Source: Candidatus Omnitrophota bacterium (lineage in GTDB: Bacteria; Omnitrophota; Omnitrophia; Omnitrophales; Aquincolibacteriaceae). From it: 64,000 nucleotides of DNA. The notes under the pieces were generated by a model. The model saw only the letters and a list, made by a program, of their open reading frames with translations. It was not told the origin of the DNA and did not search any database. Of this stretch, positions 31,562 to 63,913 are shown one piece after another; position 1 is the stretch's first letter; every line of letters starts with the position of its first letter. The stretch is from contig JAUYMS010000046.1 of assembly GCA_030698625.1 (NCBI GenBank), positions 56,348 through 120,347 of the forward strand, written 5' to 3'. A program made the translations under genes and the position numbers.

Positions 31562-33211
31562 ATGGATCTACTCATCATCAACACCAGAATTATGTGGTTT
31601 TCACACAAGTCAATGATTGCCACGGGTCCGCTCGTGCTCGCATCTTACCTGCATGAAAAAGGATTTAGCACCGGTGTGATTGATGATAACTCTGTCTATA
31701 AGCGATACCGACTCAAGGACTACGTCGATTTCATAGAGCGCAATGATGTCAAGATGATCGGGTTTTCGGTTAACACTTTAAATGCCTATAACAGTTACGA
31801 ACTGGCCAAGGCGCTTCGGAAAAAGTTTCCTGATAAGCCGCTACTTGCCGGCGGGTTGCAGAGCTTTGATGCGATCGAAGAAATGGAGCAGCAGTCCTTT
31901 GACGTTATCTTTAAAGGGGAAGCTGAGATTGCTTCGGCGAAGTTTATGGCGGCGGCTAAGAAGTGTTCACCTCATTTGACCCGAGCCATGTTTCGGGATT
32001 CGTCCTTCATGAGTGAACTCGCAGAAATCCAGGGCCTGCATATCAACGTAGACGGCAGGAAAACCGCAACCAGCGACGGGTTCTGCGAATTGGTGCAGGA
32101 TTTAGACGACGTTCCGTTCAGCAATTACGATCTAATCAATCTGAGCGATTACATCAAGTCGAAATTTGATCATCATTCCGTGACGAATCAGCTTAACTTT
32201 CAAAGAGGGTGTCCCTATGCGTGCACCTTCTGCAAGTCGGCCGTCATTGCGCAAAAACTGCGCAATAACAGCGCTCACTATATGATCAGCGAACTCGAGC
32301 GCCGTTACGAGAAGTTCGGGCTGAGCAACTTTTTCATTACCGACTCGAATTTCACGATCGACAAAGCGCGCGTGCAAGAATTCTGTGCGATCATGATTTC
32401 CAAGGGATTGAACAAGAAAATCAATCTCATGATTCAGACTTCGATTGTGATTCCGTTAAGTGACGATGAGATCGACCTGCTTCAGGAAGCGGGAGTGACG
32501 ATGTTTGCTATCGGGGTCGAACGTTTGGGTGAAGGCAACCGCAAGCAGATCAAAAAGGCGGGGAGCGGGACATTAGCCACAACCCTGATCCGCAAGCTGT
32601 ACGATCGCGGTATGCGGTCTATGGTCAATATCCTCGTGAATCTTCCCTTCGACAGCGAAGAGACTATGAAAGAGGAGACCGGTCTCATCACAAAGAACTT
32701 GCCTTACGTCGGATTCCTCTATATCAATTATCTTTGGCCGATGCCGGGAACACCGATTTGTGATGATGACACCAGCAGCAAATACAAAGCATGGTACCTC
32801 GATAAGAACATCGCCGGTTTTCAGGTCCCCTATTACAGCTACGCCTTTCTCCTGGAGGGGGCTCTGGCACTTGACGTGAATATTTTCGGCCACTCGAAGA
32901 AGACGCTTCGGGCCATTCGCCGCTTTAAGGAAGAATTTCAGTGGAAGGGGACCATGGGCGCAACCCGTTTGCCCCTGCTGAAAGTGCTTTTTGCTGCAGA
33001 CATGTTCCTGGGCAAGATCTCCTATTTTGTCGGGCGAATATCACCGAAGTTGGAGCATTTCGTCTTCGCCCCCTTTAAATTCCTGCGTATAAGAGGATAC
33101 AAGATAGTGTTCAATTTCTTCATGGGGCTTGAAAAGAAGCGGGCCAATGCCGAATCCAACCGCTCCGTGACCGGAAAAACCGCGAAATTGGCACTCTCAA
33201 AACCCTGCTAG
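31562..33211 (+). CDS. B12-binding radical SAM protein (class B rSAM, methyltransferase-like)
   Basis: N-terminal cobalamin-binding-like domain; CPYACTFC CxxxCxxC motif; 549 aa. Confidence 0.7.
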   Translation: MDLLIINTRIMWFSHKSMIATGPLVLASYLHEKGFSTGVIDDNSVYKRYRLKDYVDFIERNDVKMIGFSVNTLNAYNSYELAKALRKKFPDKPLLAGGLQSFDAIEEMEQQSFDVIFKGEAEIASAKFMAAAKKCSPHLTRAMFRDSSFMSELAEIQGLHINVDGRKTATSDGFCELVQDLDDVPFSNYDLINLSDYIKSKFDHHSVTNQLNFQRGCPYACTFCKSAVIAQKLRNNSAHYMISELERRYEKFGLSNFFITDSNFTIDKARVQEFCAIMISKGLNKKINLMIQTSIVIPLSDDEIDLLQEAGVTMFAIGVERLGEGNRKQIKKAGSGTLATTLIRKLYDRGMRSMVNILVNLPFDSEETMKEETGLITKNLPYVGFLYINYLWPMPGTPICDDDTSSKYKAWYLDKNIAGFQVPYYSYAFLLEGALALDVNIFGHSKKTLRAIRRFKEEFQWKGTMGATRLPLLKVLFAADMFLGKISYFVGRISPKLEHFVFAPFKFLRIRGYKIVFNFFMGLEKKRANAESNRSVTGKTAKLALSKPC

Positions 33212-33243: not shown

Positions 33244-33272
33244 TTGACAGGGCCTAACTACGCCCCTATACT
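33244..33272 (+). promoter_or_regulatory. Near-consensus sigma70 promoter (TTGACA-17-TATACT) upstream of the ftcD-folD-panB operon
   Basis: TTGACA at 33244-33249, 17-nt spacer, TATACT at 33267-33272, about 50 nt upstream of the start at 33320. Confidence 0.5.
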
Positions 33273-33319: not shown

Positions 33320-33946
33320 ATGAAAAAATTTACCGATATGACGCTTGAAGATTATCTCAAAGAGCTTTCCGGCGACGCACCCGTGCCGGGCGGAGGCAGT
33401 GCCTCGGCTTATGTGGGGTCGCTTGCAATGGGGCTGACTCAGATGGTCGCCAGCATCTCCCTAAAGCGCAAGAAAAAGGCGGGCCTAAGCCCCGAAGAGG
33501 AAAAGAAGGACGATGAGCAGCGCGCGACCATAAAGAAGATCCGGGCCTCGCTTGAGAAGGCGAAGCGCGACGCGTTTCAGATCGTGAATCTGGATCCCCA
33601 GGTTTATGAGGAAGTCATGGCGGTTTGGGGCGATGCGGAAAAAATGGAAGATGCCCTGCAGAATTCGTTCCGGTTGCAGGCGGACCTGGCCTTTATTCTT
33701 GTGATGGCGCGCGAATGGAATAATGCCCTTGCCTCTCTGGTCACGGGTTCCATCAAAAATGATTTGCTCGTGAGCGCGGCCATGGGCGAAGCCGCTTACA
33801 AGGGCGCTTATCACACGGCCATGATCAATGCCCATTATATGAAGGACGAGGGCCGCAAGGCGCACGCGGAGAAAGCCCTGCAGGAACTGAAAGTCCGTTT
33901 TGAGAAAGGAGATTCCTGTGTCGGCGAGCCAAGTCAAACTGCTTGA
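33320..33946 (+). CDS. Formiminotetrahydrofolate cyclodeaminase / methenyl-THF cyclohydrolase family protein
   Basis: PVPGGGSASA motif of the cyclodeaminase domain; 208 aa; adjacent to folD. Confidence 0.6.
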   Translation: MKKFTDMTLEDYLKELSGDAPVPGGGSASAYVGSLAMGLTQMVASISLKRKKKAGLSPEEEKKDDEQRATIKKIRASLEKAKRDAFQIVNLDPQVYEEVMAVWGDAEKMEDALQNSFRLQADLAFILVMAREWNNALASLVTGSIKNDLLVSAAMGEAAYKGAYHTAMINAHYMKDEGRKAHAEKALQELKVRFEKGDSCVGEPSQTA

Positions 33947-34781
33947 AGGAAAAGTCCTCGCGAAAGAAATCCGTGAGCAGATTAAGATCGAAGTCGAAGG
34001 CTTTACCGCAAAAGGAATGGAAACGCCGCGTCTCGTCGCACTTCGCGTTGCCGACGATGCCGCCAGCGACTGGTATCTGGACCAGCAGGCAAAGTGGGCG
34101 GAGAAACTGGGGATGCGATTCGAACGCGTCGACGTTCAACCGGCCGCGGAAGCCAATCTCCGCGACAAGATTAAACGCGTCAATGCGGACGGGGATTGTC
34201 ACGGCGTCTTTGTGACGATGCCGCTGCCGAAGGGAATCGACCCGGATATCCTGCTCGAACTCGATCCCAAAAAGGATGTCGAAGGTGTTCATCCCGCAAA
34301 CCTCGGTCTGATTGTGCTTCGCCGTGCCAAGCTTGTGCCGTCGACGGCCCTTGCGGCGTTCCGTCTCATTGAATCGACCGGCGCGAATCTGCGCGGCATG
34401 AATGCCGTGATCATCGGGCAGAGCGCAATTGTCGGCCGACCGCTCAATCTCCTCCTGGGTGAGAAGCGCGTCACGACTACCGTCTGCAATACGGGAACAT
34501 CCGCCGAGCTGTTGGAAAAGAGTGTGCGCGCTGCCCAAATTGTGATCGCATGCGCGGGGCAGCCGGGCATGGTGAAGGGGGATTGGATTCGTTCCGGCGC
34601 TATCGTCATTGATGTCGGAACGACTGAGGTTGACGGGAAACTTGTGGGGGATGTTGAGTTTGCTGCGGCCAGCGAGCGCGCTGATTACATTACACCCGTT
34701 CCGGGCGGTGTCGGCCCGCTTACGGTCACGATGCTGATGCAAAATCTCGTCACCGCGTATAAATGGCAAAAATCACTCTAG
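33918..34781 (+). CDS. folD: Bifunctional methylenetetrahydrofolate dehydrogenase/cyclohydrolase
   Basis: Canonical FolD sequence; start likely GTG at 33918 (track ATG at 33900 overlaps upstream gene). Confidence 0.8.
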   Translation: MSASQVKLLEGKVLAKEIREQIKIEVEGFTAKGMETPRLVALRVADDAASDWYLDQQAKWAEKLGMRFERVDVQPAAEANLRDKIKRVNADGDCHGVFVTMPLPKGIDPDILLELDPKKDVEGVHPANLGLIVLRRAKLVPSTALAAFRLIESTGANLRGMNAVIIGQSAIVGRPLNLLLGEKRVTTTVCNTGTSAELLEKSVRAAQIVIACAGQPGMVKGDWIRSGAIVIDVGTTEVDGKLVGDVEFAAASERADYITPVPGGVGPLTVTMLMQNLVTAYKWQKSL

Positions 34782-35573
34782 ATGCGACTTACCGTAAAAT
34801 CGATATATCAAAAAAAGAAAAAGCGCGAAAAGATCGTGGCCCTTACGGCCTACGATTCTCTCTTCGCCGATCTCCTCGACAGTGCGGGTGTTGACGTTCT
34901 CCTCGTGGGGGATTCTGTCGGCATGGTGCTTCTCGGATTCGACAGTACAGTTCCTGTCACGCTTCGCGACATGCTCCATCACACAAAAGCCGTGGCTCGC
35001 GCCCGGCCGAATGCACTCATCGTTGCGGATATGCCGTACGGTTCCTACGACACGGTGACTCGAGCCTTGCGATCGGCCAAGCGCCTGATCCAGGAAGGCG
35101 GGGCCGATGCCGTCAAGCTTGAGGGGGGGCAGCGCATCGAAAGACAAGTTAAGGCCCTTGTCCGCGCCGGGATCCAGGTAATGGGGCACTTGGGGATGAC
35201 GCCTCAGACGGCCGGCGCACTCGGCGGTTACCGGGTTCAAGGCAAGCACAAGGCAGAGGCCGACAAGATTTTACGCGATGCCGTACGCCTCGATCGGCTA
35301 GGCGTTTTTTCTCTCGTGCTGGAATGTGTGCCGGCAGTTCTGGCCGGAAGGGTGACGAAAAAAGTTAAATGCCCGACCATTGGTATCGGGGCCGGCGTAA
35401 AAACAGACGGGCAGATTCTCGTGATGCATGACATGCTCGGCCTTGAGGGGAAAATCCACCCGCGTTTTGTCCGGGCCTACGCAAAACTCAGCAGTGAAGT
35501 ACGCCGGGCGGTGCGCTGTTACCGCAAAGATGTCTTGGCCGGAAAGTTTCCCTCCAAGACGGAAAGTTTTTGA
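34782..35573 (+). CDS. panB: 3-methyl-2-oxobutanoate hydroxymethyltransferase (ketopantoate hydroxymethyltransferase)
   Basis: LTAYDSLFA, LVGDSVGMV motifs; 263 aa. Confidence 0.8.
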   Translation: MRLTVKSIYQKKKKREKIVALTAYDSLFADLLDSAGVDVLLVGDSVGMVLLGFDSTVPVTLRDMLHHTKAVARARPNALIVADMPYGSYDTVTRALRSAKRLIQEGGADAVKLEGGQRIERQVKALVRAGIQVMGHLGMTPQTAGALGGYRVQGKHKAEADKILRDAVRLDRLGVFSLVLECVPAVLAGRVTKKVKCPTIGIGAGVKTDGQILVMHDMLGLEGKIHPRFVRAYAKLSSEVRRAVRCYRKDVLAGKFPSKTESF

Positions 35574-35579
35574 TCCCAC

Positions 35580-37022
35580 ATGAAAGTTCTGGCTGCCGAT
35601 AAAGATACGGTTATTCTGTCGCTTGTTTCCACGAGGCTTACCGCCCGAGGTTACGAGGTCGTGGAGTTTTCTGATAAGGAAACCATGCTTCGTTATCTGG
35701 GCCGGGAAACGGTCGATTTGATTTTACTTTCCACGACCATGGATCGCATGGGAGGTATCCTTCTGGTGGAAAAGATCCGTCACACGCCTCATCTTGCAAC
35801 GATACCGATCGTCATGATGGCCGATGAGGACAGTCTTGCGGAGCTCATGATGGCCCGGGAGCACGGTTTTGACGATTTCCTCATCAAGCCTTTTAATGCC
35901 TTCGTGCTGCAGCTGCGCGTCGACATTAATATTTCGCGTAATCGCGCAAGGATCGAGGCCAACGCCCTGACGCATCTTCCGGGCAATCACTCTATTGAAA
36001 GAACGGTGCAGGCGAAGATCCAGAGCGGCGAAAAGTTCTCCGTCCTTTATATCGATATCGGGCACTTTAAATCCTTCAACGATGTGTATGGGTTTGACCG
36101 GGGTGATGACGTCATCCGTCATACGGCGCGTCTTATGTTGGAGACCGCCAGACAACTTATTCCGGAGGGGGAGTATTTTGTCGGTCATGTCGGTGGGGAT
36201 GATTTTGTCGTTATCCTAAACCCTGAATATGAAAAGAGTTATGCAAATAGCTTTATTGCCGAGTTTGACCGAATCATCGGGGCTTACTATAATGACGAAG
36301 ACCGCAAACGCGGTTTCCTGCGCGTGACCAACCGTCGCGGGAAGCGCGAAAACCTGCCTTTGATGTCATGTTCTGTGGCGGCCTGTAATAATCTTCATCG
36401 CAAGTACACCAGTTTGAGAGAAATTGCGCAGGACGCGAGCGAACTTAAGGCGTTTTTGAAATCCCAATCCGGGAGTCATTATCTTCGTGACCGTCGATCA
36501 GAGCCGATTCCTAATATGGAAGCCGCGGTTCAGATTCTGGCACCTCAAAATGATAAGAAGAAGCCTCAGGGCTCATCGGAACCGCTCGGCAAGATATTGC
36601 TTGAGGCGGGACTTATTAACGAACAGCAGCTTTCCAATGCCTTGAAGCGGCAATTTAAGACGGGGCAGCGATTGGGGCAAATTCTAATCGCTGCGGGGGC
36701 CGTCAAGAGCGATGATGTCGGCTCGGTGCTGCAGAAGAAACTCCGCGTGCCTTACGTAAGTCTTACGCGGTACAAGCCGGACCGGCAAGCCTTGAAGGTT
36801 TTTACGGCGGACTTTATGAGATCGGCGCATGTCGTTCCGCTTTCGATGCAGTCGGGCAAGATCAAACTGGCGATGTGTGACCCCTTTGATCTCAAAGTTA
36901 TGGCGGATGTCGAACGCATCACGGGTTATAAGCCGGTACCGAGCATAGCCTTAGAAGATGAATTCGAGAAATTCATGGAGCGTTATGGAAATGAATTCTG
37001 GCCGGAAGAAAACGCGGGGTAG
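35580..37022 (+). CDS. Signalling protein: receiver-like domain + degenerate GGDEF domain (GGDDF) + C-terminal MshEN-type c-di-GMP-binding domain
   Basis: N-terminal CheY-like fold with Ser at the expected phospho-Asp position (DLILLS); GHVGGDDF in place of GGDEF; C-terminal tandem LGKILLEAGLINEQQL / RLGQILIAAGAVKSDDVGSVL MshEN motifs. Confidence 0.6.
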   Translation: MKVLAADKDTVILSLVSTRLTARGYEVVEFSDKETMLRYLGRETVDLILLSTTMDRMGGILLVEKIRHTPHLATIPIVMMADEDSLAELMMAREHGFDDFLIKPFNAFVLQLRVDINISRNRARIEANALTHLPGNHSIERTVQAKIQSGEKFSVLYIDIGHFKSFNDVYGFDRGDDVIRHTARLMLETARQLIPEGEYFVGHVGGDDFVVILNPEYEKSYANSFIAEFDRIIGAYYNDEDRKRGFLRVTNRRGKRENLPLMSCSVAACNNLHRKYTSLREIAQDASELKAFLKSQSGSHYLRDRRSEPIPNMEAAVQILAPQNDKKKPQGSSEPLGKILLEAGLINEQQLSNALKRQFKTGQRLGQILIAAGAVKSDDVGSVLQKKLRVPYVSLTRYKPDRQALKVFTADFMRSAHVVPLSMQSGKIKLAMCDPFDLKVMADVERITGYKPVPSIALEDEFEKFMERYGNEFWPEENAG

Positions 37023-37028
37023 AAAACG

Positions 37029-37859
37029 ATGAATCCTCTGTCATTATCACTGCTCTCGATTGCCCAGCTGTTTTACGCGCTGACTTTTGTCCTCCACCTG
37101 CTCCTTTTTTCCGGCAAAGTTGTACGCGGTTATCGCGGCGCCCTCGCCTGCATGCGCCTGGGATTCCTACTCAATACGTTTTATTTCTTCACCGAGGCCG
37201 TCGGTCAGGGAACCTTGCTTCCGGTCGCGAGTGTCTCGCAGGCGATGGCCTTTTTCGCCTGGTCCCTTGCCTTTGTTTATCTCGTGCTTTTCATCCGTAT
37301 TCAAACCGAATCCTTCGGCCTGATCTTAAGCCCGATCCTCCTGGCCTTTCTTGCCTTGGCGTCCTGGGCGCGTGCTTTTTCAGCCTATGAACTGCCCGAG
37401 AGCCTCAATGCCTACTTCACCGTTCATATCGTGAGCGCCTTTTTCGCTTATGCCTGTTTCACCATATCCTTTACCGCCGGGGTGCTTTACCTGATGCAGC
37501 AGCGTGAACTCAAGCGTAAGAACCCGGGCCAAGTTTATTATCGGCTGCCGTCTCTGGAAGAACTCGAAGGCCTGATCTATCAGCCCATGATCTGGGGCGC
37601 GCTGCTCTTGCTCGTTGCCGTCGGTGTGGGTTTCTTCTGGTCGAAACTTGCTTACGGCGAGTTTTCGTTTTTGGATCCGAAGACGGTTTCGACACTGGTG
37701 ACGGCTGCGCTCTATCTAGCGGTCCTTTTTCTGCATTATGTGAGCTCGCAACGGGGTAAAAAAGTTGTTGTCCTCAGTATGGTTGCATTCGGTATGGTCC
37801 TCTTTAGCTTTCTGGGAACGCGTTTCCTGGAAGGAAGCCATAATTTCTTACACTCATAA
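37029..37859 (+). CDS. HemX/CcsA-like cytochrome c assembly family membrane protein
   Basis: 276 aa, 8 predicted TM helices, positioned immediately upstream of hemA as Bacillus hemX (also 276 aa). Confidence 0.45.
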   Translation: MNPLSLSLLSIAQLFYALTFVLHLLLFSGKVVRGYRGALACMRLGFLLNTFYFFTEAVGQGTLLPVASVSQAMAFFAWSLAFVYLVLFIRIQTESFGLILSPILLAFLALASWARAFSAYELPESLNAYFTVHIVSAFFAYACFTISFTAGVLYLMQQRELKRKNPGQVYYRLPSLEELEGLIYQPMIWGALLLLVAVGVGFFWSKLAYGEFSFLDPKTVSTLVTAALYLAVLFLHYVSSQRGKKVVVLSMVAFGMVLFSFLGTRFLEGSHNFLHS

Positions 37860-37887: not shown

Positions 37888-39186
37888 TTGGTTTTGGAAT
37901 TTTTTGTTTTGGGAATAAGTCATAAAGAGTGTCCGGTAGCCATACGGGAGAAACTGCATTTTAGTAAAGAGCAGATAGATTTGGCTTTGAGAGAAGCGCG
38001 GGCGGAGAGCTCTTTTTCGGAACTCGTGATTCTATCGACATGCAACCGGGTAGAGTTTTACGGCGTCGCCCATTCCGAACAGGAGGGAGAGGCGGGTCTC
38101 TTGCGTATGGTGGAACGCATTCACGGTATTAGCAGCGATGAATTCCGCCCTTATCTATATCGCCACTCAGGTACGGAGGCCCTCAGACACATTTTTCGTG
38201 TCGCGGCGGGTCTTGATTCGCTGGTCGTCGGGGAAAACGAAATTCTCGGCCAGGTTCGTGATGCCTTTCGCGCCGCTGATCGTCTTCGGGCGTTAGACTC
38301 TTTACTCTACAGGCTTATGGAAAAGGCGCTTAAAACCGGCAAGGAAGTACGCACGCAGACGCGCATCAACAAAGGTGCCGTGAGTATTCCGTCCGTGGCG
38401 GTCGAGCTTGCCGAGAAAATATTCGGCAAACTCGTCGGCGAAAAAATCATGGTCCTCGGCACCGGTGAGATGAGTATCCTGACGCTGAAGAATCTGGGGA
38501 ATGCGGGGGCCGAGATTCTTTACGTGGTGAGCCGCAATCAAGAGAAGGGTGAGTCGGTGGCTAAGGAGGCGGGCGCGGAATGGGTCGCGCTCGATGATTG
38601 GGGGCGTTATCTGACGGATGTCGACATTCTCATTTCGTCGACGGCGGCGCCGCACCCGATTGTGCATTATGATCAAGTACGCGAGGTCATGAATGCCAGG
38701 CGCCACAGGCCCCTGTTCCTAATTGATATCGCCGTGCCGCGCGATATCGAAGCGCGCGTTAACGAGATCGACGATGTCTACCTTTACAACATCGATGATC
38801 TTAAGGGCGTCTCGGCATCGAATCTCAGGCTGCGCCGTTCCGAAATTCAGGCGGCCGAAGAGTTGGTTGAGCACTCGGTAGGTCTTTTTAATTCATGGCT
38901 CAAACAACTCGAGGTCAGGCCCACCATGGAGCGCTTCGAGATTTTTTTGAGTGATATTTTGGATAAAGAATTATCACGGATTTCCAGCCACGAGACGCTC
39001 GATGAAAATAAGCGCCGTGAGTTACGCGACCGAATTTCAGCCAAGCTCCTGCATCAACCTCTGAGTAAGATCAAAGAGGCGTCCCGGAACGGGGGAGTGG
39101 CAAAATATGTCGAAGCGCTGCAGGCGCTTTTCGGCCTCGAACAGAAACCGCATGAAACAGACCATTCGCATCGGAACGCGCGGTAG
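37888..39186 (+). CDS. hemA: Glutamyl-tRNA reductase
   Basis: LSTCNRVEFYG motif, TTG start, 432 aa. Confidence 0.85.
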   Translation: MVLEFFVLGISHKECPVAIREKLHFSKEQIDLALREARAESSFSELVILSTCNRVEFYGVAHSEQEGEAGLLRMVERIHGISSDEFRPYLYRHSGTEALRHIFRVAAGLDSLVVGENEILGQVRDAFRAADRLRALDSLLYRLMEKALKTGKEVRTQTRINKGAVSIPSVAVELAEKIFGKLVGEKIMVLGTGEMSILTLKNLGNAGAEILYVVSRNQEKGESVAKEAGAEWVALDDWGRYLTDVDILISSTAAPHPIVHYDQVREVMNARRHRPLFLIDIAVPRDIEARVNEIDDVYLYNIDDLKGVSASNLRLRRSEIQAAEELVEHSVGLFNSWLKQLEVRPTMERFEIFLSDILDKELSRISSHETLDENKRRELRDRISAKLLHQPLSKIKEASRNGGVAKYVEALQALFGLEQKPHETDHSHRNAR

Positions 39187-40099
39187 CGCGCTCGCTCTTT
39201 ATCAGGCCGAGCTAGTCAAAGGCAGTATCCTCAGGGAATTTTCGCTGCTGGATGTCCGCATCGTTGTCATTAAGACCAGCGGCGATATGGTTCGCAGGCG
39301 CTCCGCGTCTCCCCTGGAAACAAAGCGCATGTTCACGCGTGAAATCGAAGACGCACTTTTGGATGACCGCGCTGACCTAGCCGTGCATAGTGCTAAGGAC
39401 TTGTCGGTGCATATGCCGGAGGGCCTCGTGATTGGTGCGGTTCTGGCCCGTGAAGATGCGCGCGATTGTCTGCTTACTCCGAACCAGGGGAAAAAGCTCG
39501 CCGAGCTTCCCATCGGTGCGCGAGTCGGTACGAGTTCTTTGAGAAGGAAGGCGCAGCTCCTGCGTTTGTGTCCCGAACTGGTCGTCGAAGAATTGCACGG
39601 CAACGTAGATTCTCGCATCAAGAAGATGCAGAAGGGCAATTATGACGCAATCATCCTGGCTTATGCGGGAATCAAGAGACTGGGATTGACGAATCATGTT
39701 TCGGAGATTCTGCCGGAAGAAATATTTTATCCCGCACCCGGCCAGGGAGCTATCGTGTTGCAGTCACGCGCGGGGGATCGCGAAATAGCCGAGGTCCTAA
39801 ATTCTTTGAATGACAAGAACACGGCCGACCGTCTCGAATGTGAACGCGCCTTTTTGGCGCGGCTCGAGGGCGGATGCCAGCTTCCATGCGGCATTAGTAC
39901 CGTTTTGGATGGCGGGAGAATAAGGACACGCGGCGCGCTTTTTGCGATCGAAGAAAGAAAGTGGGCCGAGGGAGAGCATGACGGTGACGCGGCGGATGCT
40001 GCCGGCGCGGGGCAAACGCTTGCGGAGGTGGTTTTAAGCAACGGCGGGCGGGAAATCCTAGAAGAAATCAAAAAGGGTGTTCGAGGTCAGGCATCATGA
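39152..40099 (+). CDS. hemC: Porphobilinogen deaminase (hydroxymethylbilane synthase)
   Basis: IRIGTRGSALALYQA motif; start trimmed to MKQTIRIGT. Confidence 0.85.
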   Translation: MKQTIRIGTRGSALALYQAELVKGSILREFSLLDVRIVVIKTSGDMVRRRSASPLETKRMFTREIEDALLDDRADLAVHSAKDLSVHMPEGLVIGAVLAREDARDCLLTPNQGKKLAELPIGARVGTSSLRRKAQLLRLCPELVVEELHGNVDSRIKKMQKGNYDAIILAYAGIKRLGLTNHVSEILPEEIFYPAPGQGAIVLQSRAGDREIAEVLNSLNDKNTADRLECERAFLARLEGGCQLPCGISTVLDGGRIRTRGALFAIEERKWAEGEHDGDAADAAGAGQTLAEVVLSNGGREILEEIKKGVRGQAS

Positions 40100-41658
40100 A
40101 AGCGGTTAAAAAACGACGGGAAAAAGGGAAAGTGTTTTTCGTGGGTGCCGGACCCGGAGATCCCGGGCTTCTGACGCTGCGCGGCGCCGAGGTCCTGCGG
40201 GACGCTGACGTTGTGGCCTACGACAGACTCGTCAACCCCGAGATCCTGAATTTTGCACCGGCAGCTGAGAAGATTTATGTGGGTAAAAAATCCGCGTCAC
40301 GACCGGACCGTACCAAACGCCATACGGTTTCAGACCAGCAGAAGATCAATCACCTCCTTGCCCGTCTGGCCAAGCCGGGGAAAGTCGTCGTCCGATTGAA
40401 GGGCGGCGATCCTTTCATTTTTGGCCGCGGCGGCGAAGAGGCCCATTACCTGAAGAAAAAGGGTGTTCCTTATGAGGTGGTTCCGGGAATCAGTGCCGGC
40501 TATGCCGTGCCCGCCTATGCCGGAATCCCGGTGACCGACCGGCGACTATCTTCGTCGGTGACGTTTGTGACAAGTCATGAGGGCGCCGATAAAAAGGCCC
40601 GGGCTGTCGACTGGAAAAAGCTCGCCGCACTCGACGGAACAGTCGTTTGCTTCATGGGAATCAACACGTTCCCGGCCGTGATCAAGGCGTTTATCGCGGC
40701 CGGAAAACCGGGCAGCACCCCGGTTGCGATCATTGAGAACGGGACTTTACCGGGACAGAGAGTTGTCGAGGGGACGCTTCGCACCATTGCGGCAAAAATG
40801 CGTGCGGCCAAGATTACGTCGCCGGCACTGACCGTTATAGGAGACGTCATCCGTTACCGAAAGGAACTCGCCTGGTTTGACGACAAACCGTTATCGGGAA
40901 AGACTGTTCTGTTGACGCGGCCCCGTTCCCAGATGTCGCTCTTGCGCGGAGCTTTAGAAAAGGAAGGCGCGCGTGTCCTGGAGTTTCCGGCGATCGAGAT
41001 TCTGCCTCCCGTAAACTGGGAAGGGTTGGACCGTGCCATTGCAAACCTAAGCGAATTCGATTGGATTGTCTTCACGAGCGCGAATGCGGTGCGCCATTTT
41101 TTCACGCGTCTTTTCGATACCGGTTACGATATCCGTCACTTGGCGAGAAACAAGATTGCCGTCGTCGGCAGCGCGACTCAGGAAATCTTGCTCAAGGTGG
41201 GACTGCGCGCGGATGTGATGCCGTCCAAATTTACTTCAGAAGCACTCGTGGATCTATTAAAGCAGCTTGATGCCGTGCGCGGCAGCCGGTTTCTCCTGCC
41301 TCGGACCGACATCGCGCCGGAATATTTGAGGCGCGAACTGAAAAACGCGGGCGCGGAAGTGACTCAGGTCATCGCTTACCGTACGGTTCGCGTCGCCGGA
41401 GGCGGGCAGAAATTGAAGAATTGGCTGCGCCGGGGAAAAATTGATTACATTACATTTACGAGTTCCTCAACCGTGGACAATTTTTTTGACGCCCTTCCCA
41501 AAGGAAGGCGGCCGCGAGTCAAGAGCCGGCTCGTTTCGATCGGCCCGGTCACGAGTCACACCCTCAAGGCATACGGTTATCGCCCGTATCGGGAGGCCGG
41601 CGAACATACGGTGCGCGGCCTGGTGCAAACCCTTATTAGCGGAGGTAAGAAGTCATGA
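40096..41658 (+). CDS. Bifunctional uroporphyrinogen-III C-methyltransferase / uroporphyrinogen-III synthase (CobA-HemD fusion)
   Basis: VFFVGAGPGDPGLLTLRG SUMT motif in the N-terminal half, HemD-like C-terminal half, 520 aa. Confidence 0.8.
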   Translation: MKAVKKRREKGKVFFVGAGPGDPGLLTLRGAEVLRDADVVAYDRLVNPEILNFAPAAEKIYVGKKSASRPDRTKRHTVSDQQKINHLLARLAKPGKVVVRLKGGDPFIFGRGGEEAHYLKKKGVPYEVVPGISAGYAVPAYAGIPVTDRRLSSSVTFVTSHEGADKKARAVDWKKLAALDGTVVCFMGINTFPAVIKAFIAAGKPGSTPVAIIENGTLPGQRVVEGTLRTIAAKMRAAKITSPALTVIGDVIRYRKELAWFDDKPLSGKTVLLTRPRSQMSLLRGALEKEGARVLEFPAIEILPPVNWEGLDRAIANLSEFDWIVFTSANAVRHFFTRLFDTGYDIRHLARNKIAVVGSATQEILLKVGLRADVMPSKFTSEALVDLLKQLDAVRGSRFLLPRTDIAPEYLRRELKNAGAEVTQVIAYRTVRVAGGGQKLKNWLRRGKIDYITFTSSSTVDNFFDALPKGRRPRVKSRLVSIGPVTSHTLKAYGYRPYREAGEHTVRGLVQTLISGGKKS

Positions 41659-42689
41659 CACAGTTACCGGGACAATACCCTGAGTACCGTCCGCGGCGCA
41701 TGCGGCAAAATGAGGCCTTTCGGCGTCTCATTCGAGAGACCCGTCTGTCGGCCGAACAACTCATCATGCCGTACTTTGTGGTGGAAGGCCGCGGCGTTAA
41801 AGAGGCGATCGAGGCGATGCCGGGCCAGTACCGCTATTCTCCCGACACGCTGCTGGCGGAACTAGAGACGCTGGTTGCGCTGGATGTTCGCACCGTGCTC
41901 CTCTTCGGTGTGCCGGATGAAAACGAAAAAGACGAACAAGCCTCCGCGGCCTCGTCGGCGGAGGGGATTCTTCAAAAAACGGTACGCGAGATCAAGAGCC
42001 GATTCAAAGATCTCTTGGTCATTACAGATGTGTGTTTGTGTGCTTATACGAGCCACGGCCACTGCGGCATGCTTTCACCGGAAGGTCAGATCGATAATGA
42101 TGCCTCGCTGGATCGCCTGGCCGAGACCGCACTTTCGCATGCGCAGGCGGGCGCCGATATTGTGGCGCCGAGCGATATGATGGACGGACGCATTCGGGCC
42201 ATCAGGACTAGACTCGACGCCGCCGGTTTTAAGAACACGGCCATTTTGAGTTATGCGGCGAAGTATGCTTCAGCTTTCTACGGGCCTTTTCGCGAGGCGG
42301 CCCATTCGGCGCCGGCCGCCGGCGACAGGTGCAGTTATCAGATGGATCCGGCCAACCGGGAAGAGGCCCTGCGTGAGATTGCCATGGATATCCAGGAGGG
42401 GGCGGATATGGTCATGGTGAAACCTGCGCTAGCCTATCTGGACGTGTTGCGAGAAGCCCGGGAGCGCTTTCAATTCCCCCTGGCGGCTTATGCTGTAAGC
42501 GGTGAGTATTCCATGCTCAAAGCCGCCTCTGAGCGCGGTTGGGTGGATGAAAAAAAGATTGTCCTGGAAATGGCAGTAAGTTTATTGCGTTCAGGAGCAA
42601 ATACTATCGTTACTTACCATGCGAAGGACATTGCCTTTTGGTTAAAAAACTCACAAGTCAATCATTTTAAAGAGGTTAAAACTTTTTAG
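41655..42689 (+). CDS. hemB: Porphobilinogen synthase (delta-aminolevulinate dehydratase)
   Basis: Cys-rich metal site DVCLCAYTSHGHCG, 344 aa. Confidence 0.85.
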   Translation: MTQLPGQYPEYRPRRMRQNEAFRRLIRETRLSAEQLIMPYFVVEGRGVKEAIEAMPGQYRYSPDTLLAELETLVALDVRTVLLFGVPDENEKDEQASAASSAEGILQKTVREIKSRFKDLLVITDVCLCAYTSHGHCGMLSPEGQIDNDASLDRLAETALSHAQAGADIVAPSDMMDGRIRAIRTRLDAAGFKNTAILSYAAKYASAFYGPFREAAHSAPAAGDRCSYQMDPANREEALREIAMDIQEGADMVMVKPALAYLDVLREARERFQFPLAAYAVSGEYSMLKAASERGWVDEKKIVLEMAVSLLRSGANTIVTYHAKDIAFWLKNSQVNHFKEVKTF

Positions 42690-42762: not shown

Positions 42763-42788
42763 GCGCATCACAGGCTGCGCTGTGATGC
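42763..42788 (+). promoter_or_regulatory. Perfect 10-bp inverted repeat (cgcatcacag-N6-ctgtgatgcg) abutting the RBS of the GGDEF/HD-GYP gene
   Basis: Read directly from sequence; candidate operator or translational hairpin. Confidence 0.4.
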
Positions 42789-44542
42789 GAAGGGAGAACA
42801 AGATGGGGCAGAAAAATGGTCCTGGTTTCTCCGTCCTCGTTGTTGAGGAAGATAATGAGTTCCTATCTTTACTCAAACGAAGCCTCGAAGACAATCCGCG
42901 CTTTCCCTACCGGGTCGATCAAGCCCGCAATATTAGCGAAGCCGTCGATAAAATAGGCCGCAACTCTTATAACCTACTCCTAGTAGAATCTACGCTGCAA
43001 GACCACAACGGTTTGGAACTACTCGACCAACTTAATCGCTCTCATATCAATCTACCGTTTGTTCTTATGACCGATGTCCGCGACGACCGCTTGGCTCGCG
43101 AAGCCCTCAAGCTCGGAGTGGCCGACACGATCATCAAAAGTGAGAGCCAGTTTCATGAGTTGGCGGAGTTGCTTGCAAAATCTTATCAGAAATACTGCGA
43201 TCGTCATCCCGAAGGCAATCTCCCGCAAATGCGTCCGGCGGGGCGCCGCAGCGGCGACCGGGATGCCTTCGAGTTTATCGTGCCCGAAGCGGCGGAACGG
43301 AAAATTGCAGAACCCTCGCACCGTGATGAACTTACCGGCTTATACAGCCACTCGTTTTTGCAGGAGCGCATCGTTCAGCAGTTCTCTTCGGCGGCGCGCT
43401 ACAACTATCCGATGTCATGCATTGTGCTGAATATCGATCACTTCAAGGCGATCAATGAGGGGAAGGGGTATTTGGTCGGCGACAAACTTCTCAAGGAGTG
43501 TGCCGAACTGCTTTTCGACAAGTGCCGCATGTGCGATGTCATTGCCCGCTACGGCGGGGAAGAGTTTGCGGTGATGATGCCTCATGTGAGCTATGCCGGG
43601 GCTATGGAGCTCGCCAAACGCCTCAGGACCGCGTTTTCCGAGCATATCTTTATGCAGGATTCCGAACAGATCAACCTGACGGTAAGTGTGGGCGTGTCGT
43701 CCTATCCCGAAGACAGCATGAGCCGGCGGTGTGAATTGATGAGTTTTTCCAACCAGGCGCTTTTCCGCTCCAAGGTGGCGGGGCGCAATACGGTAACGGC
43801 CTATAAAGATATCCTGCCGGTTTTCGGTTCCGGTCTGCCGAATCTTCACATAAGCGAAGACAAGGTTGCTGAGTTTCAGCGGAGGTTGACGGAAATCTCG
43901 CATACGGCACGCCGTGCCTATATCGACGCCTCGAAGGCGCTGATTATCGCGCTTGAGTCCAAGGACCGTTTTACGGCAGGGCACGCGGCCAGCTCAGCCA
44001 AGTACGCCATTCAGGTTGCCGAAGCCCTGGGAATGTCGATCGACGAAGCCGAGGTGGTTGAACACGCGGCACTTCTGCACGACATCGGAAAGATCTGTAT
44101 TCCTGACAACATTCTGCTGAAACCGGGCAAGCTCACTTTCAGCGAGTACGAGGCGATGAAGCAGCACCCCTATATGGGGTATAAAATTCTGAAGCCGATC
44201 AAATTTTTACAAGAGGAGTCCATTCTGGTGCTTCACCATCACGAATGGTTTAATGGCGAGGGATATCCGTGCCGCCTCAAGGGCAATGAGATTCCTCTGG
44301 GTGCCCGTGTCATTTCGGTCATCGACGCCTATGACACGATGCGTATCGCCGGGGGGCGTTATCGTGCCACCGCTACTGTCGAAGTCGCTGTCAATGACTT
44401 GATTGCTTGCTCAGGCACCCAGTTTGACCCTGTCGTCGTGAAGGCCTTCATCGAGGTCGTCAAGATGCGCCGGGAACTGACCACCGAAGACTACAACAAA
44501 GACGCTCTCGAAGAAGCCATCCGCAATTGCCTGGGGCAGTAG
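42782..44542 (+). CDS. c-di-GMP turnover protein: receiver domain + GGDEF (RYGGEEF) + HD-GYP phosphodiesterase domain
   Basis: GGEEF motif with upstream RxxD-like context; LHDIGK (HD) and GEGYP (GYP) motifs; probable true start MGQKNG about 21 nt downstream of the track start. Confidence 0.7.
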   Translation: MMRRENKMGQKNGPGFSVLVVEEDNEFLSLLKRSLEDNPRFPYRVDQARNISEAVDKIGRNSYNLLLVESTLQDHNGLELLDQLNRSHINLPFVLMTDVRDDRLAREALKLGVADTIIKSESQFHELAELLAKSYQKYCDRHPEGNLPQMRPAGRRSGDRDAFEFIVPEAAERKIAEPSHRDELTGLYSHSFLQERIVQQFSSAARYNYPMSCIVLNIDHFKAINEGKGYLVGDKLLKECAELLFDKCRMCDVIARYGGEEFAVMMPHVSYAGAMELAKRLRTAFSEHIFMQDSEQINLTVSVGVSSYPEDSMSRRCELMSFSNQALFRSKVAGRNTVTAYKDILPVFGSGLPNLHISEDKVAEFQRRLTEISHTARRAYIDASKALIIALESKDRFTAGHAASSAKYAIQVAEALGMSIDEAEVVEHAALLHDIGKICIPDNILLKPGKLTFSEYEAMKQHPYMGYKILKPIKFLQEESILVLHHHEWFNGEGYPCRLKGNEIPLGARVISVIDAYDTMRIAGGRYRATATVEVAVNDLIACSGTQFDPVVVKAFIEVVKMRRELTTEDYNKDALEEAIRNCLGQ

Positions 44543-49177: not shown

Positions 49178-49690
49178 GTGAAAAAGCAGAAGGCATGCAT
49201 CATCTGCGGTAATCTATTCGACGCGGGACAAGAGTATATCTGTTCGCGCTGCAAGCAGAGTACGGCGTCCCCCGAACCGTCGACACCTAAAAAAAAGACG
49301 GAGCATAAGCGGCGCATCCTGGTCATTGACGATGAGCCCATGATCGTGAAGATGCTGCAGAGCCGCCTTGTTGCGAACGGTTACGAAGTCCTTACTGCCT
49401 ATGACGGGGAGCAGGGCTTTCAAATGATCAAAGCTGAAAAACCGGATCTCGTCATCTCGGATATCATCATGCCTAAGGTAAGCGGTTATAATCTGGTGGA
49501 GTTGATCGCGGCCGAGACCGACGGCACCGAAAAAACCCCGGTCATCATTATGACCGCACGCGGCAGCATGAAGGAGCTTTTCCATGTGTGGAATTACGCG
49601 CACTTTATAGAGAAACCCTTTGAGCCGGAAGATCTAATGACCAAAGTTCGCGAAGTCTTTAAACAGATGGAAGAAGACGGAGAAGGCTAA
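49178..49690 (+). CDS. Stand-alone response-regulator receiver domain with N-terminal zinc-ribbon
   Basis: CIICGN...CSRC ribbon, then ILVIDDEP ... DLVISDIIMP receiver motifs. Confidence 0.6.
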   Translation: MKKQKACIICGNLFDAGQEYICSRCKQSTASPEPSTPKKKTEHKRRILVIDDEPMIVKMLQSRLVANGYEVLTAYDGEQGFQMIKAEKPDLVISDIIMPKVSGYNLVELIAAETDGTEKTPVIIMTARGSMKELFHVWNYAHFIEKPFEPEDLMTKVREVFKQMEEDGEG

Positions 49691-61351: not shown

Positions 61352-62262
61352 AAGCGCTGCCAGCCCGTTCCTTCGTGACCGAAGGAAAATTTTTCCGGAT
61401 ATAAAATCTCGGCAAAAATTTCCAGGGACTCTACGAGACGCGGTCCGGGCCGGTTAAAATACTGATTGCCGTCGGTCAAAAACACCCGCCCCGTTCGTAC
61501 GGCCTTTAATTTCTTCCACTCTGCTTTTTGAGTTACGGCCGCCATTTCAAGGCGCGACTTCTCGATGCCCCAGCCGCAGGGAAGCACGACAATCACATCG
61601 GGGTCCTGCCCGACTAACTCTTCCCATTTCATCCAGGGGGAATGTTCACCCGGTCTGCCGAAAAGATCTTCGGCGCCGAGCAACGCCAGTAATTCCGGAA
61701 TCCAATTCCCGCCGGCCATGAGCGGGTCGAGCCATTCGAGGCAGGCGACCCTAGGGTGTCCGCCGATCGATTTCGCTTTTTGGGAGATGGCCTGCATTCT
61801 TTCGCGGTAGCTATTGATTAAGTCGTCGCCTCTGTCTTTTACTTTCAGGGCGCCGGCGATTCGCCGAATGCCTGACCACACATCTTCTAGATTGTTCGGA
61901 AGCAAAGTCACGATCTCGGGTTTCGCGTCATCGGCCCAATCGCAGACGGCGTTCTCGACGTCTTTCAGGCTGACTGCGCAGACCTCACAGTGGTCCTGAG
62001 TGATAATGACATTGGGTTCAAGGGCTTTTAAAGCCTTGGCGTCGATCCGGTAAACCGAGCCGGAATCGCTTACGGTTTCCTTAACGCGGTCATCGATTTC
62101 CCTGCTTGTTCCTTCGATGTTGATTTTTGGTTCCGAGCAAGTCGGCAGGCTTTTGACTACAGCCGGAAAATCGCATTCATGGGAACGACCCACGAGTTGG
62201 TCGCCGCAACCTAAGGCGTGAACAATCTCGGTACTGCTGGGGATCAGGGAAACAATGCGCAT
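61348..62262 (-). CDS. Class III periplasmic-binding-protein fold (BtuF/FhuD-like cobalamin/siderophore binding protein), no signal peptide
   Basis: MRIVSLIPSSTEIVHALG N-terminus and overall BtuF-like pattern, 304 aa. Confidence 0.55.
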   Translation of the reverse strand: MRIVSLIPSSTEIVHALGCGDQLVGRSHECDFPAVVKSLPTCSEPKINIEGTSREIDDRVKETVSDSGSVYRIDAKALKALEPNVIITQDHCEVCAVSLKDVENAVCDWADDAKPEIVTLLPNNLEDVWSGIRRIAGALKVKDRGDDLINSYRERMQAISQKAKSIGGHPRVACLEWLDPLMAGGNWIPELLALLGAEDLFGRPGEHSPWMKWEELVGQDPDVIVVLPCGWGIEKSRLEMAAVTQKAEWKKLKAVRTGRVFLTDGNQYFNRPGPRLVESLEIFAEILYPEKFSFGHEGTGWQRF

Positions 62263-62336
62263 TGGAGAATTCTACCCGTTCTGCCGTCCGGTGGCTACCG
62301 GTAAAAAAGGCGAAAGTGTGTTATAATCAGGGCATC

Positions 62337-62567
62337 ATGAGCGACGGCAGTATACCCGCGGTAAGTCAAGATTGTTGGAAGCCGTGTAATATTTGCAAGA
62401 AGGCAATAGCCTTTCAAGCCGTCTATTACCTCTGCTCCGTTAGTACCTGCCGCAGTAAACGCACCGGCCTCGTCTTCTGCTCTACGTCCTGTTATGACGG
62501 CCACCTTGGTTTTGCCCGTCACCGCAGCTCCTACTGTGAAGAAGAAGTTGCCCCCGTCAAGTTTTAA
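62337..62567 (+). CDS. Small Cys-rich hypothetical protein (possible metal-binding)
   Basis: CWKPCNICKK...CSVSTC...CSTSCYDGH...C; start within the 62262 track ORF. Confidence 0.3.
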   Translation: MSDGSIPAVSQDCWKPCNICKKAIAFQAVYYLCSVSTCRSKRTGLVFCSTSCYDGHLGFARHRSSYCEEEVAPVKF

Positions 62568-62570
62568 CCG

Positions 62571-63083
62571 CTAACCGGCCGCCCGTATTTGGGCAAGGCT
62601 CAGGTAGGCGGGTGACTTTGTAATGAAGCTATTTTTGAGGCCTTTACTGTATGTTGTGAAGCTGATGTAAGGGTAATCATCCGCGTGTTTAACTAGGCCG
62701 GCTCTTAACGGATTTCTCTCAATATACCTTGCGCATTCCAATAGATATTCCTCCCTGTCAACGGACTTACTCCTGTACATTCTTTCGAACGTCGCTCCGG
62801 AAATCCTGTATTCTTTACTGTGGTAATAAGCGTACTTTCTCTTGAGAAAATGAGAGAAACGAATGAGATTCTCAATGGCAGTCGTAAAAACAAGCATGTG
62901 GACATGGTTCGTCATAAGGCAATAGTGGTAAATGGCAACCTGAGAAGCCGAAGCGTGTTCTCGGGTCAGGTTCAAGAAAAAGTCGTAGTCTCTAGGGCGA
63001 TGGAAAAGATCTTTGCGGTTAATGCCGCGTGCTATCCAGTGATAGATTCCAGACGGACTAATTTGGCGTTTTTTTCGCGGCAT
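62571..63083 (-). CDS. IS200/IS605-like Y1 (HUH) transposase, REP-associated tyrosine transposase (RAYT) type
   Basis: HUH motif HVHMLV, YHWIARGINR, catalytic-Tyr region; start trimmed to MPRKKRQ; no terminal repeats found. Confidence 0.65.
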   Translation of the reverse strand: MPRKKRQISPSGIYHWIARGINRKDLFHRPRDYDFFLNLTREHASASQVAIYHYCLMTNHVHMLVFTTAIENLIRFSHFLKRKYAYYHSKEYRISGATFERMYRSKSVDREEYLLECARYIERNPLRAGLVKHADDYPYISFTTYSKGLKNSFITKSPAYLSLAQIRAAG

Positions 63084-63249
63084 AAGAGAGGCCACAAGTC
63101 GCCTTGCGAGAGGAGAGCTTTCGAGGTGTGTCAGAGAAGCAGAGGCAGTATAATGCAATGGTCAGAAGACGGCGTCCGGAAAATTTCTTATTTGCGTATA
63201 TTCCAAGATAGTCATATTATGTGAGCAGCTATCATTTTATGGAGGTTCT

Positions 63250-63603: not shown

Positions 63604-63648
63604 AGTAATGAGTATTCTGGAATAGGACTGTCGAAAGGAGGGAATCCT

Positions 63649-63864: not shown

Positions 63865-63913
63865 CGAAGACTGTCGCATAAACAGAGGATAGGCGGAAGC
63901 CGCCATAATAAAA

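Follow-up and report, generated by a model that had tools for sequence, protein, structure and literature searches.

The stretch of DNA analysed here, 64,000 nucleotides of contig JAUYMS010000046.1 from a Candidatus Omnitrophota assembly (hereafter called the window), carries on its forward strand an open reading frame, running from ATG to TAG with exact coordinates, that encodes a protein of 480 residues in which a receiver-like domain (REC), a GGDEF-fold domain with the active-site motif GGDDF and a C-terminal MshEN domain follow one another. An identical protein is present in the databases (entry P0001) from a Candidatus Omnitrophota metagenome-assembled genome. An earlier note on this DNA had described the product as a pseudo-receiver joined to a degenerate GGDEF domain and an MshEN domain, and had considered it a likely receptor of cyclic di-GMP (c-di-GMP) rather than a cyclase. 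The gene, hereafter the target, and its parts are laid out as follows, with the predicted local distance difference test abbreviated as pLDDT.

35580..37022 (+): whole gene, pseudo-REC-GGDDF-MshEN (open reading frame, Pfam and NCBIfam domains, identical entry P0001)
35580..35897 (+): receiver-like domain, residues 1-106 (Pfam REC, column frequencies, model pLDDT about 90)
35730..35732 (+): codon of Ser51, which takes the place of the phospho-acceptor Asp (PleD alignment, family columns)
35898..35972 (+): long linker helix between REC and the GGDDF domain, residues 107-131 (model helix 107-131)
35973..36497 (+): GGDEF-fold domain of the GGDDF clade, residues 132-306 (Pfam GGDEF, invariant residues, fold matches)
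36192..36206 (+): GGDDF motif, residues 205-209, preceded by invariant G202-H203
36498..36581 (+): poorly conserved and partly disordered linker, residues 307-334 (pLDDT, column conservation)
36582..36740 (+): four-helix MshEN_N module, predicted to bind c-di-GMP, residues 335-387 (NF053729, motif coordinates, model helices)
36741..36995 (+): MshEN_C (T2SSE_N1-like) subdomain, residues 388-472 (Pfam MshEN; best PDB match PilF GSPII-C residues 333-474)

Scanning with Pfam recognised Response_reg at residues 3-112 (62.3 bits, cut-off 30.2), GGDEF at residues 130-215 (51.4 bits, cut-off 23.8, covering only positions 6-90 of the 161 in the model) and MshEN (PF05157) at residues 388-470 (67 bits, cut-off 23.1), and the NCBIfam model NF053729, a 53-residue 'c-di-GMP_motif', matched residues 335-386 with 57.5 bits (cut-off 38). 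All three domains are thus above cut-off, and the domain description of the earlier note was right in every particular. Two further Pfam matches, to Thg1 (E 0.054) and DUF4388 (E 0.003), were dropped as below threshold and are ascribed to general palm-fold or helical similarity. Neither NCBIfam nor Pfam contains a curated family for the GGDDF module, which is met only by generic REC, GGDEF and PleD-like models below their equivalog cut-offs. The AlphaFold2 model of the protein, built with 31 relatives, has a mean pLDDT of 81 with each domain confidently folded; in Foldseek comparisons the first two domains found WspR, PleD and DgcR as top structural matches, and the third domain found c-di-GMP-bound MshE (5htl) and PilF GSPII-B, as well as the N-domain of Xanthomonas citri PilB in its complex with PilZ (7lkm). 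At the level of 90%-identity clusters the target has over 120 full-length relatives, and conservation was measured over the best 120 of them (51-62% identical to the target, about 480 residues long); these have the same three domains and, where labelled, come nearly all from Omnitrophota. With more than 120 full-length three-domain relatives, the features of the target are not due to chance. We found no description of the REC-GGDDF-MshEN architecture in literature searches covering MshEN with GGDEF and Omnitrophota with c-di-GMP, and it is absent from the 2016 catalogue of MshEN proteins; the architecture is new in the literature found, yet assembled from known parts.

Alignment with PleD places Ser51 of the receiver opposite the phospho-acceptor Asp (DLILLSTTM in the target versus DIILLDVMM in PleD), and among the 120 relatives this position is occupied by Ser in 108, Ala in 10 and Gly in two, never by Asp. 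The acidic pocket residues D7 and D9 are retained together with K103 (D/E7, D9 and K103 in the family), and position 81, where receivers have Thr or Ser after strand beta4, is Ala, the family having Thr in 86 sequences and Ala in 26. The receiver is the least conserved of the domains, with 10 of its 106 positions invariant. Judged from these residues, it offers no Asp for phosphorylation, and the earlier claim of a pseudo-receiver is borne out. The helix that follows resembles the stalk of WspR and DgcR, ends with the motif ANALTHLPGN, which is typical of the clade defined below, and has a mean conservation of 0.79. By comparison, none of the 28 positions in the second linker (residues 307-334) is invariant, and the pLDDT of residues 322-333 falls below 50.

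Conservation peaks in the GGDEF-fold domain, where 46 of 175 positions are invariant. Residues D159, K164, N167, D168, G175, D176, G202, H203, G205, G206, D207, D208, K290 and K294 are the same in all 120 relatives and F209, the last residue of GGDDF, is kept in 119. The C-terminal block KxFLKSQxGSHYLRDRR is nearly invariant too: nine of its 15 specified positions (K290, L293, K294, Q296, G298, S299, Y301, L302 and R305) are identical in 120/120 sequences, and the other six in 80% to 99%. Functional residues D327, K332, N335 and D344 of PleD have equivalents in D159 (the metal ligand of strand beta1), K164 (the Lys of DxFK) and the guanine-binding pair N167 and D176, and K294 probably corresponds to PleD K442, by position in a poorly alignable region. 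Since the Asn and Asp specifying guanine are kept, the ligand of the domain is most likely a guanine nucleotide. The motif itself lies outside the canon [G/A/S]G[D/E]E[F/Y], and the position of the inhibitory I-site (RxxD five residues upstream of the motif) reads EGEY by spacing or RQLI by HMMER alignment, neither of them RxxD, as had been stated before. Matches for the whole domain are found among the GGDEF domains of DosC, DgcB and YfiN (TMt 0.7-0.77); by sequence, its C-terminal half could not be matched to any solved cyclase. Column by column, the GGDDF site is under strong purifying selection, a pattern contrary to that expected from a pseudo-enzyme in decay.

The C-terminal module begins with motif I, PLGKILLEAGLINEQQLSNALKRQ (36582-36653), continues with the spacer FKTGQ, of exactly five residues, and ends with motif II, RLGQILIAAGAVKSDDVGSVLQKK (36669-36740). 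The published MshEN motif consists of two 24-residue copies of RLGxx(L/V/I)(L/V/I)xxG(L/V/I)(L/V/I)xxxxLxxxLxxQ separated by a 5-residue spacer (PMC5013675), and 18 of its 22 specified positions are matched in the target (10/11 in motif I and 8/11 in motif II), the mismatches being P335 for Arg, A374 for L/V/I at position 11, V380 for Leu at position 17 and K387 for Gln. The Gln that closes each motif forms a hydrogen bond with the ribose-phosphate. Both Gly residues at position 3 (G337 and G366) and the hydrophobic residues that stack on guanine at positions 2, 17 and 21 (L336, L351, L355, L365, V380 and L384) are conserved in the family, and model helices span residues 336-342, 348-361, 365-371 and 377-388. 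The conservation of this 53-residue module (0.78) equals that of the GGDDF domain. Disabling changes are known from XpsE, namely G11V, I19R, L29R, G40L, L54H and L58C (PMC5013675); no radical substitution of that kind occurs in the target. Mutants of MshE at Arg9 and Gln32 change affinity less than five-fold, and changes of hydrophobic residues cost more than ten-fold. The closest solved relative, PilF GSPII-C, likewise opens its motif I with Pro (KPLGEILVELGL), and its affinity for c-di-GMP lies roughly in the MshEN range (PMC11731258). GSPII-B carries Lys or Leu at position 1, where K, L or R is tolerated and Leu does better than Arg; single mutants of its terminal Gln to Glu retain dissociation constants of 0.46-0.95 uM and the double mutant abolishes binding (PMC11731258). 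With two clear motifs, as the earlier note had seen, and with PF05157 and NF053729 both above cut-off, the module is a genuine MshEN, and we consider it likely to bind c-di-GMP. The sensing half of the proposed receptor role is therefore plausible, given the NF053729 match and the absence of XpsE-type changes, and the half that set a receptor against a cyclase is not favoured. The same note held that MshEN normally sits on ATPases, which understates its range: the founding paper of 2016 already listed fusions to REC, HD-GYP, CheA, glycosyltransferase, kinase and cyclase domains, GGDEF not being among them.

The module formed by the first two domains extends well beyond this lineage. We scanned one genome per species with back-translations of the peptides GH[IV]GGDDF and NALTHLPGN, confirming matches by tblastn, and obtained at least 600 matching stretches, of which at least 596 were confirmed, in species-representative genomes of many phyla (Actinomycetota, Elusimicrobia, Planctomycetes, Clostridia, Eisenbacteria, Chloroflexi, Omnitrophota and others), including the cultured actinomycetes Micromonospora, Actinoplanes, Salinispora and Phytohabitans. 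GH[IV]GGDD[F/Y] is found in each of the 80 loci retrieved, as GGDDF in 79 and as GGDDY in one (L032). The target and these 80 loci share the signatures (A/S)xLTxLPGN, D(I/L)DxFKxxND, GH(I/V)GGDDF and E(L/M)KxxxK...GS...DRR within a module of ~305 residues, and we use this set to delimit what is hereafter called the REC-GGDDF clade, a grouping defined in this analysis that corresponds to no curated model. Most members are ~308-311 residues long and consist of REC and the GGDDF domain only; their receivers are mostly canonical (VVDDDP...DLVLLDVMMP...MLTAK...KPF, with the pattern DD...D...T...K), the standalone forms having Asp at the phospho-site along with the motifs PLTxLPGN, D(L/I)DxFKxxND, GH(I/V)GGDDF, E(L/M)KxxAKxxxGS and DRR.

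A profile search against 1.8 billion representatives found the module, over residues ~4-311, with scores above 230 bits, standing alone, preceded by extra receivers, C-terminal in hybrid kinases or ahead of other domains. The 1,741 clusters obtained at E <= 1e-30 are an upper bound on the clade, because canonical REC-GGDEF proteins may reach that score; in the top 150 hits, where the motif was checked, 137 have GGDD[F/Y], 132 of these being GGDDF, with His two residues before the motif in 125 of the GGDDF carriers. The remainder comprises one GGEDY, two sequences having GGEEF alongside GGDDF, probably in a second domain, and otherwise mostly fragments. Of ten longer members sampled, five have the architecture REC-GGDDF-EAL, two belong to the hybrid histidine kinases and one is REC-GGDDF-REC-HD-GYP; the remaining two close with an RsbW-like HATPase_c_2 domain and with an extra receiver, respectively. 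Representatives P0148, P0153, P0163, P0167, P0169, P0142 and P0147 show the module fused to EAL, to REC plus HD-GYP or to an RsbW-like HATPase_c_2 of the anti-sigma kinase type.

Neighbour clustering, which covered 77 clade loci, revealed a GAF-HisKA-HATPase_c kinase adjoining the REC-GGDDF gene in 20 of them, nine of which also have a FIST_N/FIST_C sensor upstream, and a FIST, GAF-kinase, REC-GGDDF operon is likely. The kinase-adjoining loci (L008, L012, L013, L015, L018, L027, L029, L032-L038, L043, L045, L059, L060, L067 and L071) belong to non-actinobacterial phyla. In Actinomycetota the standalone gene separates rpe from the riboflavin operon in a collinear arrangement, priA-fmt-rsmB-rpe-[REC-GGDDF]-ribD...ribBA-ribH; this context is seen in loci L014, L019, L021, L025, L030, L031, L041, L047, L048, L055, L056, L063, L070, L073-L077 and L080. 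No NCBIfam model reaches its cut-off on the clade, and public names of its members are generic only. On the strength of the standalone and kinase-linked forms, the fusions to EAL and HD-GYP, the generic names and the want of any model or paper that we could find, the REC-GGDDF clade is a genuine, uncharacterised two-component output family embedded in c-di-GMP signalling, and its GGDDF, from its distribution among sequences, is a clade signature and not decay.

The order in which the target acquired its present form can be proposed from a neighbour-joining tree of the shared module, in which the 23 MshEN-bearing sequences make up one group with one intruder. The forms with Ser51, together with the Asp-bearing P0124, are a nested clade with 100% bootstrap. 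The deeper MshEN-bearing forms end their motif II in Gln and keep Asp at the phospho-site, the receivers of P0130 and P0132 being entirely canonical, and PLGQ at motif I is common to all MshEN-bearing forms. Most simply, a REC-GGDDF regulator of Omnitrophota would have gained MshEN once and the target lineage would later have lost the phospho-acceptor, the deep nodes being weakly supported. Omnitrophota genomes also keep standalone, kinase-linked paralogues (L008, L012, L015, L027, L043, L059 and L060), and the deeper MshEN-bearing paralogues L004, L005, L044 and L050 show no recurrent theme in their gene context. Omnitrophota and Ca. Gygaella moreover encode shorter REC-GGDDF-MshEN_N proteins (~390-405 residues; L023, L044 and L050) that end right after the 53-residue motif, and in L023 (8363-11197) this gene starts 3 nt after one for a GGDEF-HD-GYP protein. 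Because these three proteins still pass NF053729 in the absence of the N1 subdomain, their sequences argue that selection acts on the nucleotide-binding bundle itself.

The surroundings of the target, all on the same strand, are those of a heme operon, as the earlier note had recognised; the gaps that flank the gene measure 6 nt on each side.

33320-33946 (+): FTCD_C cyclodeaminase-like gene (Pfam; conserved upstream)
33900-34781 (+): folD (Pfam; conserved upstream)
34782-35573 (+): panB (Pfam; conserved upstream)
37029-37859 (+): CcsA/HemX-like gene (Pfam; conserved downstream)
37888-39186 (+): hemA (Pfam; conserved downstream)
39107-40099 (+): hemC, the listed open reading frame overlapping the end of hemA by 80 nt, so that the true start is probably further downstream
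40096-41658 (+): cobA (TP_methylase)-hemD fusion, 520 residues (Pfam)
41655-42689 (+): hemB (Pfam; conserved downstream)
42782-44542 (+): REC-GGDEF-HD-GYP gene, 586 residues, within the heme gene string and 5.8 kb downstream of the target

The hemL gene follows further downstream, after three other genes. The order FTCD_C-folD-panB-target-hemX-like-hemA-hemC-cobA/hemD-hemB is kept in every orthologue locus that is long enough to show it, namely L001 (58% identity), L003 (52%), L081/L082 (53%) and L083 (53%), with partial agreement in L002 and L084. Co-transcription of the target with panB and the heme operon is well supported, and a functional link to heme synthesis is a hypothesis. The REC-GGDEF-HD-GYP protein has a canonical GGEEF, an RxxD I-site (RMCD), HHHEWFNGEGYP and an HD-GYP domain, and its receiver carries Glu at the phospho-Asp position (LLLVESTLQ); the presence of such a gene indicates that the organism turns over c-di-GMP. 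As an obligate partner of the target it was rejected, since it occurs in the window and in L001 and is absent from L081 and L083. Promoter-like sites are at chance level overall, and terminator-like sites (24 versus 14.9 ± 4.0 expected) are modestly above it. The best sigma-70-like match of the region, at 33244-33272 (+) with 11/12 positions, lies 48 nt upstream of FTCD_C and may be the start of the operon. Just upstream of FTCD_C-folD-panB there is a gene for a B12-binding radical SAM protein (31562-33211, +, 549 residues), which follows polysaccharide deacetylase and Methyltransf_24 genes, and a single-domain receiver (49178-49690, +, 170 residues) comes after prmA at the end of the co-directional string. 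The GC content drops to 0.457 at 62001-64000, compared with 0.50-0.59 in the rest of the window. Standing at the head of a cofactor-biosynthesis operon is a position that the REC-GGDDF module has in two unrelated phyla, before heme genes in Omnitrophota and before riboflavin genes in Actinomycetota.

Comparison with characterised systems sharpens what is particular to the target. It shares with PleD, WspR and DgcR the receiver fold, the long linker helix, the GGDEF fold, the metal-binding Asp of beta1, the Lys of DxFK and the guanine-binding Asn and Asp. It differs from them in having Ser for the phospho-Asp, GGDDF instead of GG[D/E]EF, His for Arg two residues before GG, no RxxD I-site, probably a Ser at the R446-equivalent position and an additional C-terminal MshEN; its scores with the corresponding NCBIfam models are far below cut-off (93 versus 474 for PleD and 58 versus 500 for DgcR). 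The pair of 24-residue motifs around a 5-residue spacer, with an N1-type subdomain after them, is shared with Vibrio cholerae MshE, Thermus thermophilus PilF GSPII-B and GSPII-C and Escherichia coli NfrB. In those proteins MshEN is N-terminal on a secretion or pilus ATPase or lies beside a glycosyltransferase, whereas that of the target is at the C-terminus of a REC-GGDDF protein. Receiver and MshEN are joined in one polypeptide also in Bdellovibrio Bd2402 (REC-MshEN_N-UNK) and in REC/MshEN combinations of Geobacter (Wang et al. 2016), Bd2402 being reported to bind c-di-GMP tightly (PMC5013675); these forms lack a GGDEF-fold domain between the modules, and the receiver of the target is a pseudo-receiver. 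The Hypr cyclase GSU1937 resembles the target by its GGDDF motif and the lack of a phosphodiesterase (PDE) domain. It differs in receiving its input through a transmembrane/HAMP region and in having the Hypr Ser at the residue that sets base specificity, where the target has an Asp of guanine type (D176). A possible model for the GGDDF pocket is the GEDEF domain of Caulobacter PdeA/CC3396, which is a GTP sensor and, like PelD and PopA, an example of a GGDEF fold turned to ligand sensing. PelD and PopA have kept an RxxD I-site, to which c-di-GMP binds, while their active site has decayed; the target is the opposite, with no I-site and invariant active-site residues.

The explanation that we favour, with a probability of roughly 0.4, is that the target is a REC-GGDDF output module whose input has switched from phosphorylation to c-di-GMP, which would make it a c-di-GMP-gated GGDDF enzyme, probably a cyclase under product feedback. 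The soluble protein would go back to a REC-GGDDF response regulator of the two-component type. In that clade a histidine kinase would phosphorylate the receiver and so control the GGDEF-fold output; this output is predicted to bind Mg-GTP and is probably a working non-canonical cyclase of the diguanylate type. In one Omnitrophota lineage MshEN would then have been fused to its C-terminus, and the sub-branch of the target would subsequently have lost the phospho-acceptor Asp, now Ser51. With the Asp gone, c-di-GMP on MshEN would be the only recognisable input left. Its binding to the two-motif MshEN_N bundle may shift how the dimer formed by REC and the linker helix presents the two GGDDF domains to each other and, the clade being devoid of an RxxD I-site, MshEN could serve the cyclase as a high-affinity sensor for product feedback or cross-talk. 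Domain identities, residue states, clade membership, conservation and synteny are observations of this analysis, from which c-di-GMP binding, catalysis, the sign of the regulation and the sequence of evolutionary steps are deduced. Counting against this proposal are the monophyly of all MshEN-bearing forms, which receives 17% bootstrap in the neighbour-joining tree, the inter-domain arrangement of the AlphaFold2 model, which is unreliable (predicted template modelling score 0.52), the failure of our literature searches to find any paper on the REC-GGDDF clade, and the residue changes, the PA3258 result and the PilF findings given with the alternatives considered next.

Somewhat less probable is that the protein is purely a receptor or adaptor of c-di-GMP, in which MshEN binds the nucleotide, the pseudo-receiver and GGDDF domains are non-catalytic scaffolds and the signal passes through protein contacts, possibly to HemX-like or HemA partners, the GGDDF pocket taking up at most GTP as a second ligand in the way of the PdeA/CC3396 GEDEF domain. 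Such a role would suit a receiver that cannot be phosphorylated, the tightly conserved heme-operon synteny and the frequent EAL and HD-GYP fusions of relatives, which fit a GTP-sensing regulatory GGDEF. It would also suit the changes around the active site: the fourth residue of the canonical motif, Glu, is reported to be the catalytic base across the dimer, and the Asp replacing it keeps the chemistry but is shorter (PMC8835794) and may impair that function; H203 stands, in a robust alignment, in place of PleD R366; and S299 probably replaces the equivalent of R446, by position in a poorly alignable region. The literature that we found on 'GGDDF' comprises only GSU1937, PA3258, Bordetella DdpB and one Streptomyces EAL-GGDDF protein, and the first two point in opposite directions. 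PA3258 (GGDDF-EAL) shows no cyclase phenotype, whereas GSU1937 of Geobacter sulfurreducens contributes to cyclic GMP-AMP (cGAMP) levels in vivo and its fusion in E. coli makes cGAMP and c-di-GMP, which a GADDF mutation abolishes (PMC8835794). By this analogy GGDDF would be compatible with catalysis without guaranteeing it. A scaffold, moreover, would need no absolute conservation of the motif aspartates, the beta1 Asp and the guanine-binding residues; the standalone members of ~310 residues have no other output domain, so that GGDDF must be their output; and the pattern is the reverse of known GGDEF-derived receptors, which keep the I-site and lose the active site. The idea of a degenerate or dead cyclase thus finds no support in a motif that is a clade signature, that GSU1937 shows to be capable of activity and whose metal and guanine residues are invariant in 120/120 relatives. 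The MshEN might, alternatively, not bind nucleotide and act in protein-protein contacts or oligomerisation, like the N-domain of XpsE or the PilZ-binding N-domain of X. citri PilB, leaving a GGDDF enzyme or scaffold that is constitutive or regulated otherwise. The motif II of the target ends in K387 instead of Gln (Lys in 107/120 relatives), and in most orthologues motif I ends in His (114/120) and Gly-10 of motif II is replaced by Asn, so that the family consensus departs from the motif at six of 22 positions (P, H, N, A/L, V and K). In the non-binder PilF GSPII-A the motifs end in His and Arg, which resembles the consensus His358/Lys387 of the family; sequence alone failed to predict binding in the PilF GSPII system, and GSPII-A with its consensus restored bound only after an N-terminally extended, capped alpha1 and inter-subdomain contacts had been removed (PMC12002112). 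The fold match to the PilB N-domain in the PilZ complex points the same way. Nevertheless, this alternative seems unlikely to us: NF053729 is passed by a wide margin, also by the deep paralogues, XpsE-type substitutions are lacking, both Gly-3 and all hydrophobic stacking positions are kept, the target itself retains Q358 and G373, its modelled alpha1 starts at 336, right after the conserved Pro and the disordered linker, without an extension like that of GSPII-A, and both the GGDDF-like conservation of the 53-residue module and the existence of MshEN_N-only fusions suggest selection on the nucleotide-binding bundle.

Two further proposals stand beside these. A dedicated tetrapyrrole regulator, transmitting the status of c-di-GMP (or GTP) to heme flux through the HemX-like protein and glutamyl-tRNA reductase (GluTR) or through operon expression, would be compatible with the other readings and is suggested by the order panB-target-hemX-like-hemA-hemC-hemD-hemB being kept down to 52% identity, by the 6-nt junctions in the window and by the standalone module of Actinomycetota likewise heading the riboflavin operon. 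Against it, synteny within a single lineage may be mere inheritance, deeper MshEN-bearing paralogues lie in unrelated contexts, the target has no DNA-binding domain and no published link from MshEN or GGDEF to heme synthesis was found in the literature; we give it little credence. Just as improbable is that the REC-GGDDF clade is a catalytically distinct GGDEF branch with a different reaction or product, marked by the invariant H-x-GGDDF, the probable Ser at the R446-equivalent position and the C-terminal DRR, in which case the MshEN fusion would read c-di-GMP and write a second nucleotide signal tied to cofactor operons (heme here, riboflavin in Actinomycetota). The c-di-GMP-gated GGDDF enzyme remains the reading that we favour.

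These results correct the annotation shortcut by which a motif other than GG[D/E]EF means a dead enzyme, since the odd motif of the target identifies response-regulator outputs of a large and conserved clade that is unstudied so far. Within the Omnitrophota branch, nature seems to have run a rewiring experiment on one output module, which is controlled by phosphorylation in some forms, by two inputs in those that combine a canonical REC with MshEN and, in the forms with Ser51 and MshEN, seemingly by c-di-GMP only. If MshEN gates the cyclase, this would be a new mode of c-di-GMP feedback replacing the RxxD I-site and the first known case of an MshEN in control of a nucleotide-signalling enzyme. 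The position of the gene at the head of the heme operon offers a lead on the physiology of c-di-GMP in an uncultured phylum. The wider REC-GGDDF clade, which spans from Actinomycetota to Omnitrophota and is open to direct assay in cultured Micromonospora, Actinoplanes and Salinispora, is arguably a more valuable lead than the architecture of the target itself.

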